IMG/VR virus record: IMGVR_UViG_2671180755_000005
Strand: one strand, 5' to 3'
Length of the DNA stretch: 7,647 nucleotides
From: a virus
Lineage: Duplodnaviria; Heunggongvirae; Uroviricota; Caudoviricetes
The translations under genes and the position numbers were made by a program. Under the pieces are notes generated by a model. The model had not been told where the DNA came from. It saw only the letters and a list, made by a program, of their open reading frames with translations, and ran no database searches. Each line of letters begins with the position of its first letter. The stretch's first letter is position 1. This document shows, in pieces, positions 393 to 7,647 of the stretch.

Positions 393-1031
393 TTAAATAT
401 CTTGTTGAATTTTAAAGCATACTCCCAATATGCAAGATAGATCATCCAGCATAATTGAAGGGTAGCGAGGATTCGTGGGGACTAAAAGAATATCCGGCCC
501 TTCTATCTCCAGTTTGCGAATGACAGGCGTTGTGGTCCCTTTGGGTAAGGCAAGGACAATATTTCCTGGTTGTACGATTCGATCGGGATCAACAAAAACT
601 GTTGAACCATTTGGGATGGAAACTCCACCACCAGATGTCGACATACTGTCACTCTCTAGAACAACAGCAAAGGTATTGGCCGGGATTTCTCCGACAAGCT
701 GCACACAAGAGGTTATTGAGGAATTTTTCATATAATCACTCCAGCTTGCTGCCTGCTGAAGTGATAGTAGCGGAACCGTTTTTATCGGCGGTAAAGATAG
801 ATCAAGCGAATCACCTGTATTTAACTCTCCTCCATTAAGAAGCCAATTTTCGTTTACTTTCAATATCTTTGCCAGTGAACTTATGTAACGCGAGGACGGC
901 GCTCCTCCACCGTTCATCCATTGACTTACGGAGCCTTTTGATGCGCCAGTGGCATTGACAAGGTCTTTGCCTTTCAAGTTTAGCGCATGCATACGTTGGG
1001 TTATGCGTTCAGATATTGTTTGCTTGTTCAT
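393..1031 (-). CDS. cI: cI-like prophage repressor (N-terminal HTH, C-terminal S24 LexA-type autopeptidase domain)
   Basis: Complete 212-aa ORF. N-terminal HTH-like segment (LKGKDLVNATGASKGSVSQW), C-terminal S24 features including a Ser motif (ESDSMS) and a downstream Lys (VIRKLE). Divergent from the cro-like gene across an operator-bearing intergenic region. The ATG has no SD and abuts the operator, consistent with a leaderless PRM-type transcript. Confidence 0.9.
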   Translation of the reverse strand: MNKQTISERITQRMHALNLKGKDLVNATGASKGSVSQWMNGGGAPSSRYISSLAKILKVNENWLLNGGELNTGDSLDLSLPPIKTVPLLSLQQAASWSDYMKNSSITSCVQLVGEIPANTFAVVLESDSMSTSGGGVSIPNGSTVFVDPDRIVQPGNIVLALPKGTTTPVIRKLEIEGPDILLVPTNPRYPSIMLDDLSCILGVCFKIQQDI

Positions 1032-5279: not shown

Positions 5280-5837
5280 ATGAGCACTATTACCAGAGAA
5301 CGCGCGGAGATTAAATCATACATCACAGGCTTCCTGAGCGACTCGGCGCACGATAACAAGTCTTCAGACAGCCTGCTGGCTAATGTGTTTCGTATCGCGC
5401 TGGCATCACTGGAAGCAGAGCCGATAGCAATGGTAGTGCCTGATGAAATGGATTTGCTTACCTGCCATCTCGACGGTGTAACTAAAACATATGCTGATGG
5501 CTGGAACGCCTGCCGCGTCGCCATGCTTCAGGCCGGAAACTTTCGGGAAAATAAGAATTCGTCAACCAACAATTTTCGGGAAATCTCGGAAACGTCAACC
5601 AGATCTCCGATAACTCTGGATGGCTGGATAAGCTGTACTGAGCGAATGCCTGAAAAGAGCCAGAACGTGCTTATTTCGATGAATATCGATAGCGAGGCTG
5701 GGCCATTAATATATTCCGCACGCTATCTCGGAGGCACGTTCCGGCGCGGAGGTATAGCAGTTAGTCCGGGTAATGATCTTAGGCAAGCAACCCACTGGAT
5801 GTCGCTACCAGAACCGCCGCAGGAGGTGAATCAATGA
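5280..5837 (+). CDS. DUF551-like phage protein
   Basis: 185-aa ORF with AAGGAAAA upstream of ATG 5280. C-terminal DGWISCTERMPE ... THWMSLPEPPQ matches the DUF551 signature as I recall it. Confidence 0.75.
   Translation: MSTITRERAEIKSYITGFLSDSAHDNKSSDSLLANVFRIALASLEAEPIAMVVPDEMDLLTCHLDGVTKTYADGWNACRVAMLQAGNFRENKNSSTNNFREISETSTRSPITLDGWISCTERMPEKSQNVLISMNIDSEAGPLIYSARYLGGTFRRGGIAVSPGNDLRQATHWMSLPEPPQEVNQ
5538..5600 (+). repeat. Imperfect 31-bp tandem direct repeat inside the DUF551-like gene
   Basis: AACTTTCGGGAAAATAAGAATTCGTCAACCA (5538-5568) versus AATTTTCGGGAAATCTCGGAAACGTCAACCA (5570-5600), 23 of 31 identical, encoding NFRENKNSSTN / NFREISETSTR. Confidence 0.6.
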
Positions 5838-5917
5838 CCTGGCCTGAAGCATTCACAACGGTAGGAATTGCGATGGCGGTGGCGCTGGTGGTGTATTCGA
5901 TTTGCCGCTGGGGATAA
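5834..5917 (+). CDS. Candidate 27-aa hydrophobic small protein (MTWPEAFTTVGIAMAVALVVYSICRWG)
   Basis: ATG at 5834 with AGGAGGTG 7 nt upstream, forming an ATGA overlap with the DUF551-like stop. Single TM-like segment. Below the ORF-track size cutoff. Confidence 0.35.
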   Translation: MTWPEAFTTVGIAMAVALVVYSICRWG

Positions 5918-5924
5918 AAACGGT

Positions 5925-5952
5925 TTGCGGGAAAAGGATAGTTAAGTAGAAT
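5925..5952 (+). promoter_or_regulatory. Candidate promoter of the hok-like mRNA (-35 TTGCGG 5925-5930, -10 TAGAAT 5947-5952)
   Basis: -10 is a 5/6 match to TATAAT with a 16-bp spacer. The predicted start around 5958-5960 coincides with the 5' element GCGGGTGCTTGAGG. Confidence 0.4.
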
Positions 5953-6070
5953 TGCTGCGGGTGCTTGAGGCTATCTGCCTCGGGCATGAACACCAACGGC
6001 AGATAGAGAAAAGCCCCAGTTAACATTACGCGTCCTGCAAGACGCTTAACATTAATCTGAGGCTCAATCC

Positions 6071-6202
6071 ATGCTGAACACATGTAGGTTAGCCTCTTAC
6101 GTGCCGAAAGGAATGGTAACGAGGAAAGACCTCTGCGAGGTGCGAATCCGAACCGGTCAGACGGAGGTCGCTGTCTTCGTAGACTACGAATCTGAGAAGT
6201 AA
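6071..6202 (+). pseudogene. hok: hok/gef-family type I toxin reading frame with in-frame loss of the transmembrane segment
   Basis: 43-codon ORF MLNTCRLASYVPKG-M-VTRKDLCEVRIRTGQTEVAVFVDYESEK. The tail matches the Gef/HokC periplasmic tail (recalled as ...VTRKDLCEVHIRTGQTEVAVFTAYESE) and the MLNTC start matches the MokC-type leader frame, but the roughly 23-codon hydrophobic segment is missing. Conserved 5' (5957-5970) and 3' (6252-6266) complementary RNA elements flank it. Confidence 0.6.
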
Positions 6203-6321
6203 GAGACCAGGCGGGGGAGTAATCTCCCGCCACCTCTGATGTGTCAGGCATCCTCAACGCACCCGCGCTTTACCATACTGAAAATGCTGTTTGAATGTTC
6301 ATCTCTGAAAGAGGACTATGA

Positions 6322-6666
6322 ATGAAAAAGGTATTGATTGCAGCACTTATTTCCGGTGTGTCTTTTGGCGCTTTTGCACAGCAGGGTGGTTTCCAGGGGC
6401 CAGAAGCAGAGCGTTCAACAGTAGCGCAGGCAAAAGAACTGAAGGATGATGCATGGGTTATCCTTGAAGGGAGCATCGTTAAAAAAGTGGGTGATGAACG
6501 TTATGAGTTTCGTGACAATAGCGGGACAATTGTCACGGATATTGATGACAGCGTATGGGCCGGGCAGAATGTTTCTCCGAAAGACAAAGTAAGAATTGAG
6601 GGTGAAATTGATAAAGACCTGAGGAGTGTTGAAGTTGATGTAAAGGCACTGAAATTATTAAAGTAA
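6322..6666 (+). CDS. YgiW/YdeI (BOF) family periplasmic OB-fold protein, prophage accessory gene
   Basis: 114-aa ORF with signal peptide MKKVLIAALISGVSFGAFA, AAAGAGGA SD 7 nt upstream, and family-typical YEFRDNSGTI...VRIEGEIDKD segment. Own terminator downstream. Confidence 0.9.
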   Translation: MKKVLIAALISGVSFGAFAQQGGFQGPEAERSTVAQAKELKDDAWVILEGSIVKKVGDERYEFRDNSGTIVTDIDDSVWAGQNVSPKDKVRIEGEIDKDLRSVEVDVKALKLLK

Positions 6667-6683
6667 CCGCCCCTGCTTGTTAA

Positions 6684-6711
6684 GCCCGTCTTACTGACGG
6701 GTTTTCTGTTT
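6684..6711 (+). terminator. Rho-independent terminator after the YgiW-like gene
   Basis: Stem CCCGTC (6685-6690) / GACGGG (6696-6701), loop TTACT, followed by TTTTCTGTTT (6702-6711). Confidence 0.7.
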
Positions 6712-6787
6712 GTACATTCCGGCGTATTGCCTTACAATTCGCGCAGTCAGCCTGAACAACTGACACCTGCTGTCACCGGAGAATCCG

Positions 6788-7060
6788 ATGACACAACACA
6801 TAAAATCCCACAATTCTGAAGCCGACCCGGAAATTAAGCAGGGGAGGCGTTTTCGTGCGCCTCAGTATGGCTGGTTTCACTATCTGTTCTGTACGATCGA
6901 TGAGGCAGATATGCTTCAAGAGGCGTATCTGCGTCGCGGTGTCCGTGTGGAGCGGAGTCTGAACGCTGATCGTCTGACCTGGACCGTTTCTGTATATCTT
7001 CCTGTTCGTGCACATCTGCCACGGACACATGCCTGCTACCGTCAGCGCGTCTGGAGGTAA
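6788..7060 (+). CDS. Hypothetical protein (90 aa)
   Basis: ATG at 6788 with GGAG 7 nt upstream. Stop TAA at 7058-7060 is immediately followed by the start of the next gene. Confidence 0.55.
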   Translation: MTQHIKSHNSEADPEIKQGRRFRAPQYGWFHYLFCTIDEADMLQEAYLRRGVRVERSLNADRLTWTVSVYLPVRAHLPRTHACYRQRVWR

Positions 7061-7061
7061 T

Positions 7062-7647
7062 GTGCGGGTATTACTTCGACCTGTTCTGGTTCCGGAACTC
7101 GGGCTGGTGGTCCTTAAGCCCGGTCGTGAATCATTGCCAGTTTTTCATCGCGGCAGGGTGCTGGTGGAGCCGGAACCGAAAAACATGCGGGCGCTGCCAT
7201 CTGGAGCGGTTCCTGCTGTTCGCCAGCCGCTGGCGGAAGATAAATCACTGCTGCCATTTTTCAGCGATGAGCGGGTGATTCGTGCAGCTGGCGGCGCTGG
7301 TGCACTGTCTGACTGGTTATTACGTCACGTGAAATCCTGCCAGTGGCCACACGGCGATTATCATCACAGCGAAACCGTTATTCACAGTTACGGTGCTGGC
7401 GCAATGGTGTTGTGCTGGCACTGCGACAACCAGCTGCGCGACCAGACCTCCGAATCACTTGAGCAACTTACTCAACAAAATCTGACAGCCTGGATGATTG
7501 ACGTCATACGCCATGTAATGAATGGCACGCAGGAGCGGGAATTATCGCTGGCTGAATTATCCTGGTGGGCAGTCTGCAATCAGGTGGTGGACGCATTACC
7601 TGAGGCAGTATCGCGTCGCTCTCTGGGATTACCGGCGGAAAAAATCC
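7062..7647 (+). CDS. DUF968-like (YdfU-like) Cys/His-rich phage protein, partial (runs off the right edge)
   Basis: Frame open from 6978 to the window end. GTG at 7062 preceded by GGAGG (7053-7057); alternative ATG at 7029. Contains CQWPHGDYHH and CWHCDN motifs recalled from Qin-prophage YdfU-type proteins. The listed ORF 7060-7278 is in another frame and Cys/Trp-rich, so it looks spurious. Confidence 0.7.
   Translation, partial: MRVLLRPVLVPELGLVVLKPGRESLPVFHRGRVLVEPEPKNMRALPSGAVPAVRQPLAEDKSLLPFFSDERVIRAAGGAGALSDWLLRHVKSCQWPHGDYHHSETVIHSYGAGAMVLCWHCDNQLRDQTSESLEQLTQQNLTAWMIDVIRHVMNGTQERELSLAELSWWAVCNQVVDALPEAVSRRSLGLPAEKI

Follow-up and report, generated by a model that had tools for sequence, protein, structure and literature searches.

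How would a lambdoid prophage express a small secreted protein of a stress tolerance family that lies next to a toxin-antitoxin locus, and is its gene an autonomous unit or part of its neighbor? The question arises from a 7,647-nucleotide stretch of viral DNA (the window) in which a preliminary description, made from the letters alone, had picked out a BOF/YgiW-family secreted OB-fold protein as a self-contained prophage cargo gene with its own SD, signal peptide and intrinsic terminator. The window belongs to a lambdoid prophage of Escherichia coli O157:H7 (146N4 and many other strains), which it matches at 100% identity apart from one 81-bp gap, and comprises the immunity, replication and nin region of a prophage resembling Sp11 of strain Sakai, in which the gene is ECs2197. 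The replication and nin regions match Sp11 despite a differing repressor (window 393-1031, minus strand, a 212-aa LexA/S24-like protein; Sakai Sp11 has a 112-aa repressor there, L003 1053-1391), a case of ordinary lambdoid mosaicism.

The interval 6271-6711 holds one ORF, at 6322-6666 on the plus strand, which encodes 114 aa: a signal peptide of residues 1-19 (6322-6378) and a mature OB-fold protein of 95 aa. An SD, AGAGGA, stands at 6310-6315, 6 nt 5′ of the ATG. The signal peptide, assigned by sequence rules, consists of an n-region MKK (+2), a 13-residue hydrophobic h-region VLIAALISGVSFG with a mean Kyte-Doolittle value of 2.23, and a c-region ending in AFA|Q20; in alignment, Q20 coincides with residue 1 of the mature YgiW construct 1NNX. 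The preliminary description had named both the SD and the signal peptide correctly, as it had the location of the gene, which has the hok locus on one side and further early genes on the other (first a 90-aa ORF, then DUF968/ydfU). A lipoprotein was considered and rejected: the protein contains no Cys and hence no lipobox, and Cys12 of variant BOF proteins is not in a lipobox context.

Membership of the 6322-6666 product in the BOF family is solid. The family HMM search, which had been named beforehand as the check on this part of the preliminary description, returned matches above the curated cut-offs: Pfam BOF (PF04076) at E 2e-33 and 115 bits (cut-off 25.8) over profile positions 10-102 of 103, NCBIfam NF033674 (NirD/YgiW/YdeI family stress tolerance protein) at 136.9 bits (cut-off 35) and, as a narrow pass, the YgiW/YdeI subfamily model TIGR00156 at 112.2 bits (cut-off 108.15). 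The only solved structure related by sequence is 1NNX, E. coli YgiW (E 4e-29). In an AlphaFold2 model based on 30 homologues, the protein folds into five strands and short helices, with pLDDT 91-98 over residues 31-114; Foldseek places 1NNX at the top of its matches (TM 0.92 normalised to the target, 53% identity), followed by the generic OB folds RPA, Ten1 and Stn1.

The protein shares with E. coli YgiW (1NNX) and Salmonella VisP the family, the fold, a cleavable signal peptide and GGFxGP at the mature N-terminus, but YgiW/VisP orthology is not supported because the genomic context differs: chromosomal ygiW/visP adjoins qseBC and is regulated by it, whereas the gene studied here lies in a prophage, behind hok. 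The hok-linked proteins, 53-55% identical to 1NNX, form a separate clade of 114-115 aa whose nearest chromosomal relatives (Citrobacter, Enterobacter, Cronobacter, Pantoea and Salmonella) are 55-68% identical and 126-134 aa long. The clade lacks the 13-20-residue N-terminal linker of these relatives, which carries a second GF/GGF motif (a GF...GGF repeat), so that the prophage protein has one GGF motif versus two in its closest chromosomal relatives; against YgiW, which we take to be 130 aa long, it is 16 residues shorter. All hok-linked BOF proteins have KDL where 1NNX and all chromosomal relatives compared have KDW. A contig search with the protein gave, among the matches listed, relatives of at most 51% identity (Rahnella, Ewingella and others) and is uninformative on how far the hok-linked clade extends. 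YdeI/OmdA of Salmonella and E. coli is likewise a periplasmic BOF-family protein and is linked to antimicrobial-peptide resistance, but orthology with YdeI was rejected, the equivalog model NF007471 giving 64.8 bits against a cut-off of 179.

The gene is not new: existing records annotate it, and it belongs as an ordinary member to an established family. Its product is 98% identical to L0136 of phage 933W, orf73/ECs1244 of VT2-Sakai (Sp5) and ECs2197 of Sakai prophage Sp11; the 933W record calls L0136 "similar to hypothetical YgiW and YdeI proteins", and the RefSeq name for the 933W and Sakai homologues is "YgiW/YdeI family stress tolerance OB fold protein". Of 5426 complete E. coli genomes, 549 (~10%) carry it, nearly always at 99% identity or above, and 548 complete genomes of the species contain the segment that holds it at high coverage. 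Its carriers are Stx2a-converting phages and related O157 prophages; among deposited phage genomes, essentially only Stx-converting phages have it (45 records). We found no functional study of the gene in the literature. Searches on the locus tags ECs1244, ECs2197, L0136 and Z1444 gave nothing relevant, those combining ygiW, Stx and phage returned only a GWAS paper and a QseBC review, and a Stx-lysogen RNA-seq paper (PMC6580645) mentions neither hok nor the BOF gene.

The answer to how the gene might be expressed lies, we believe, in the locus upstream. A probable hok promoter at 5924-5952 (plus strand; -35 TTTGCG, 17-nt spacer, -10 TAGAAT at 5947-5952; predicted start ~5959) is the best sigma-70-like match on the plus strand within 5880-6316 (8/12), is kept in all variants of the module and lies just 5′ of the start of the Rfam hok/sok model. 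That model, RF01794, matches the hok mRNA leader and sok region at 5959-6128 (plus strand; 100.6 bits against a gathering threshold of 59, E 1.5e-22); no Rfam family besides sok matched, and in the 933W record the homologous stretch carries the annotations sokW, mokW and hokW. Then follows a remnant mok/hok reading frame of 43 aa (6071-6202, plus strand), interrupted at ~6114/6115 by the 81-bp deletion. Alignment with 933W and four other hok loci indicates that the deletion, 27 codons long and in frame for mok, has cost hok its SD, ATG and membrane helix; it also alters the sok -35 on the minus strand from TTGCCT to ATTCCT. As read from its sequence, the hok locus of the window is a dead remnant. 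The 30-mer across the deletion junction does not occur in the other fetched loci, and complete E. coli genomes align in two pieces across the deletion in all of the best-ranked matches listed; the deletion may be a natural strain-specific allele or something else. Downstream, the region 6245-6266 (plus strand; CAGGCATCCTCAACGCACCCGC), in which GCACCCGC is complementary to GCGGGTGC at 5958-5965, holds a motif conserved in more than 120 viral hok loci, and by analogy with published hok biology it is assigned the role of the fbi (fold-back inhibition) element.

Between this element and the BOF start codon we find no recognizable signal that would start or stop transcription. The sigma-70 scan of the promoter tool found no promoter between the hok stop (6202) and the BOF start, a relaxed hexamer scan of the same interval gave at best 7/12 matches with poor -10 hexamers, none of the spacer candidates is kept across the three module variants, and visual inspection of 6203-6321 for motifs of sigma-E, PhoP, CpxR or the extended -10 type revealed nothing convincing or conserved. 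Consensus scans do miss activator-dependent and alternative-sigma promoters; for sigma-70, the scans agree with the preliminary description, which had seen no promoter by eye. In the region 6203-6350, the leader folds no better than its shuffles (z = -0.6), and a partial pairing between leader and SD is possible but not significant. Beyond the gene, a strong intrinsic terminator occupies 6682-6714 (plus strand), beginning sixteen bases past the stop codon with a GC-rich 9-bp stem at 6682-6704 (AAGCCCGTC-TTACT-GACGGGTTT) followed by TCTGTTTGT; its predicted fold of -18.8 kcal/mol (z = -2.7) is equaled by 0 of 200 shuffles, and it is the sole terminator-like site on the plus strand within 5800-7100. 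It would close a joint hok-BOF unit. The strongest sigma-70-like match of the region, TTAACA-18-AATAAT (10/12), lies on the minus strand at 6683-6654, pointing antisense into the 3′ end of the gene; it is perhaps due to chance, and its -35 reads TTAGCA in 933W.

Comparison with other hok loci shows how this arrangement differs from the usual one. Scanning IMG/VR for exact copies of the hok fbi motif yielded 120 loci, 118 of them with enough flank, and in 97 of the 118 an intrinsic terminator (CCCGCTTCGGCGGG plus a T run; canonical sequence CCCGCTTCGGCGGGTTTTT) follows within 60 nt 3′ of fbi. Another 13 without the BOF gene retain, in all but one case, a degenerate or interrupted copy of the hok hairpin, while the eight BOF-linked loci show no trace of this hairpin after fbi. 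Homology of the window to canonical hok loci ends at ~6274 (...CACCCGCGCTTTACC) and resumes at the hairpin 3′ of the BOF gene, and this hairpin with its downstream flank (TTACAATTCGCGC...GTCAGCCTGAACAACTG) aligns with the hok terminator and flank of BOF-less prophages. In canonical prophage hok/sok loci (hokD of Qin and those of PPompW and vB_EcoS-689R5), promoter, sok, mok/hok and fbi are ~95% identical to the window and occupy the same nin slot, but the terminator comes right after fbi and the cargo, rem or a 130-aa ORF, beyond it; in the window, the cargo stands before the terminator. The inserted cassette begins with the BOF leader (6275-6321, plus strand; 47 nt), which starts where canonical hok homology ends and includes the SD at 6310-6315.

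The linkage is also fixed. The BOF ATG lies 53-55 nt after the fbi motif in all 46 viral contigs with enough upstream sequence; in none of these 46 loci does a canonical terminator separate fbi from the gene, and in 45 one follows it. The order hok-fbi-BOF recurs in another prophage with an 82%-identical variant (L005), and hok-BOF with an 81%-identical protein at a non-prophage chromosomal site in assemblies labeled E. coli (L006-L009; L006 3379-4345), between a cytochrome-c peroxidase/cytochrome b562 gene pair and mrp-metG, with no phage genes within 4 kb on either side. Against complete E. coli genomes, the best match of L006 is only 87% (O121/P0005 type, 15 genomes), and the islet therefore comes from a lineage not represented among them. 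As far as these alignments tell, the hok-BOF arrangement predates the phage lineage of the window. The intrinsic terminator that the preliminary description took for the gene's own is strong and present at 6682-6714, but it stands where relatives have the hok terminator, with which it aligns. The claim of a self-contained gene finds no support, given the want of a recognizable promoter, the fbi fusion in 46 of 46 loci and the missing hok terminator in front. What is modestly new is that the BOF gene sits within the hok unit, where a terminator would usually stand.

That the gene is prophage cargo, as the preliminary description also had it, agrees with its contexts. A block at 5819-6713, made up of a 27-aa membrane ORF, sok/mok/hok, the BOF gene and the terminator, is 97% identical between the window prophage and 933W/VT2-Sakai, and the same hok-BOF-terminator block surrounds 933W L0136, Sp5 ECs1244 and Sp11 ECs2197; its surroundings differ. 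In the window, with the 81-bp deletion in hok, the gene sits in the nin region between the hok locus and the 90-aa ORF, ahead of DUF968/ydfU, rusA and Q. The 933W copy of the block adjoins attR instead, where it follows Ant, DksA-like and DUF551 genes and is convergent with the tail genes; in Sp5, too, the block neighbors attR, behind Ant/DksA-like genes. Both downstream contexts recur among the 47 viral contigs that carry the gene, in 35 and 11 of them. Conversely, many related prophages, among them L013, L021, L022, L025 and L043, have in the same nin slot hok, fbi and terminator directly followed by the 90-aa gene, without BOF. Sequence comparison thus supports the gene being accessory cargo, an insertion relative to close relatives, and since it separates genes that are adjacent in them it qualifies as a moron on comparative grounds. 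Classical morons bring their own promoter and terminator. Like the lambda-type morons bor and lom, the BOF gene is an extra envelope-protein gene missing from close phage relatives and plausibly expressed from the prophage; unlike them, it has no promoter of its own that we could find and apparently shares its terminator with hok. Other lambdoid phages (L010 2480-3170; L011 2188-2936) carry small genes of a different kind past the hok terminator (rem; a 130-aa ORF); rem is behind hok in PPompW, as it presumably is in Qin of K-12, and a 130-aa ORF is behind hok in vB_EcoS-689R5. Cargo thus appears to settle behind hok repeatedly.

Because the terminator expected after hok is missing and no promoter takes its place, we propose that the BOF gene is co-transcribed with hok, most likely as the distal cistron of an extended hok mRNA. 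A cassette of ~400 bp (leader plus ORF, 6275-6681) would have been inserted between fbi and the terminator of a hok/sok type I toxin-antitoxin unit. Transcription would start at the hok promoter (~5959), read through the BOF gene and end at 6682-6714, to give an mRNA of ~755 nt in the window and ~835 nt with an intact hok; a hairpin at 6210-6231 in the hok 3′ UTR, or Rho, could partly stop this read-through. We found no transcript data for the BOF gene. The hok promoter itself has been shown to be active in the lysogenic state: hokW mRNA was seen by northern blot in uninduced MG1655-Sp5 lysogens, and hokW-sokW of Sp5 works as a type I toxin-antitoxin system, helping phage to be released after mitomycin C treatment (PMC8621323). 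The blots are presented without sizes, and the gene downstream of hok goes unmentioned (PMC8621323). That this promoter also drives the BOF gene is what we infer. Since it is independent of phage induction, BOF protein could be made in the lysogen, and phage early transcription could contribute to its expression after induction. If the gene is read from the hok promoter, deletions of hokW-sokW carry possible polar effects on it, and the hokW-sokW::km deletion (PMC8621323) may therefore be polar on BOF.

The protein appears to be of use in its own right. Three variants of the module, differing at 18-23% of residues, have pairwise dN/dS values of 0.17-0.24, and BOF is therefore under purifying selection; in the window, its ORF, SD, signal peptide and terminator are intact despite the deleted hok, which argues that the value of the protein is independent of Hok. 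With its signal peptide, it would be exported to the periplasm, where, by analogy with its chromosomal relatives, it probably serves envelope stress tolerance. Salmonella VisP (YgiW) binds peptidoglycan and inhibits LpxO, YdeI/OmdA contributes to antimicrobial-peptide resistance, and mutation of ygiW reportedly makes E. coli sensitive to peroxide and cadmium (all as cited in PMC5636140 and PMC11950266). LpxO, the one defined target of VisP, is absent from E. coli (PMC5636140). The comparisons above establish the family and fold of the protein, its export-signal features, the architecture of the insertion, the strict linkage to hok and the purifying selection; co-transcription with hok, expression in lysogens and a role in stress tolerance are less certain. 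Taken as a whole, the reading of a Sec-exported periplasmic BOF protein, encoded by a cargo cassette within the hok unit, read from the hok promoter and active in envelope stress, is the one we favor, with some confidence.

Other readings of the same locus deserve consideration. The gene could be a truly self-contained moron after all, with a weak, activator-dependent or alternative-sigma promoter of its own hidden in the hok 3′ UTR or the leader (6203-6315) and induced by envelope stress independently of hok. Chromosomal members of the family are indeed under two-component control (QseBC for visP, VC1638-39 for vca0732; PMC5636140), promoters of this kind often have no consensus -35, and two weak candidates exist, TCCTCA-17-CATACT (6251-6279) and TTACCA-18-AATGTT (6270-6299). 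Yet no candidate exceeds 7/12 or is conserved in the three variants, the leader offers just 47 nt, and the fixed fbi fusion and the loss of the hok terminator in every copy would be needless for an independent unit; we regard an own promoter as possible but rather unlikely. At the other extreme, the gene might be a neutral passenger that hitch-hikes with hok to no function. No phenotype has been reported for it, and an association of "ygiW_2" with HUS (PMC11950266) is explicable by linkage to the Stx2a prophage, but dN/dS values of 0.17-0.24 across the variants, the intact ORF, SD, signal peptide and terminator in 46 viral contigs and the presence of the segment in 548 complete E. coli genomes make this a reading to which we give hardly any credence.

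The protein might instead serve the phage, being made mainly by early read-through after induction and working with Hok in the envelope, on lysis timing or release, or binding outer-membrane proteins at their periplasmic face to block superinfection. In the window, the gene has the orientation of the early operon, and in 933W it follows the Ant/DksA-like cluster next to attR; its linkage to hok is strict, and hokW-sokW, whose ::km deletion is possibly polar on BOF, promotes Sp5 release (PMC8621323). YdeI/OmdA, moreover, interacts with the porin OmpD (title of Pilonieta et al., cited in PMC5636140). However, the ORF remains intact under purifying selection where hok is deleted, as in the window, and the module persists at the L006-L009 chromosomal site without phage genes, both of which point to a benefit that depends on neither Hok nor the phage; nor is there evidence of any BOF protein blocking phage entry. 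We judge this reading improbable. A further version of our own proposal would give the arrangement a regulatory meaning: the cassette would turn a type I toxin-antitoxin transcript into an expression platform, with BOF made from a 3′-extended, long-lived hok mRNA at a level set by the hok promoter, with activation of hok by 3′-end trimming delayed or coupled to the decay of the BOF message, and with the protein perhaps acting together with Hok. We hold this to be a long shot; if true, part of the phage-release phenotype of hokW-sokW and of the HUS association of "ygiW_2" with a mokC-like gene belongs to the BOF gene.

Returning to the reading that we favor, BOF protein made in lysogens from the hok promoter would be a simple candidate for an envelope-stress factor that EHEC owes to a prophage. 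An Irish case-control GWAS of 2025 associated "ygiW_2" and "group_5720" (mokC-like) with HUS and treated them as possibly interacting; its further hits ydfU_1, ybcQ_1 and stx2B are prophage genes (PMC11950266). In the window, ydfU and the Q antiterminator gene share a neighborhood with the hok-BOF block. The "ygiW_2" and mokC-like hits are adjacent parts of one physical block and very probably of one transcription unit. The types of gene behind ygiW_2, group_5720, ydfU_1 and ybcQ_1 occur together at 5959-7647 of the window, so that they probably represent one linked signal, not interacting genes; as hits within one prophage block, they are most economically explained by linkage to the Stx2a-type prophage.

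The borders of the block offer two further observations. Upstream, a 27-aa ORF (MTWPEAFTTVGIAMAVALVVYSICRWG; 5834-5917, plus strand) shares bases with the stop codon of DUF551, has the look of a single membrane helix and is also present in 933W; L005 and L006 have a different, 34-aa hydrophobic ORF in its place upstream of the hok promoter. Downstream, a promoter-like site, TGTACA-16-TACAAT (6711-6738, plus strand), directly follows the terminator ahead of the 90-aa gene (6788-7060); its TTTACAATTCGCGC motif is kept in prophages without the BOF gene, which suggests that transcription may restart past the hok unit at this site.
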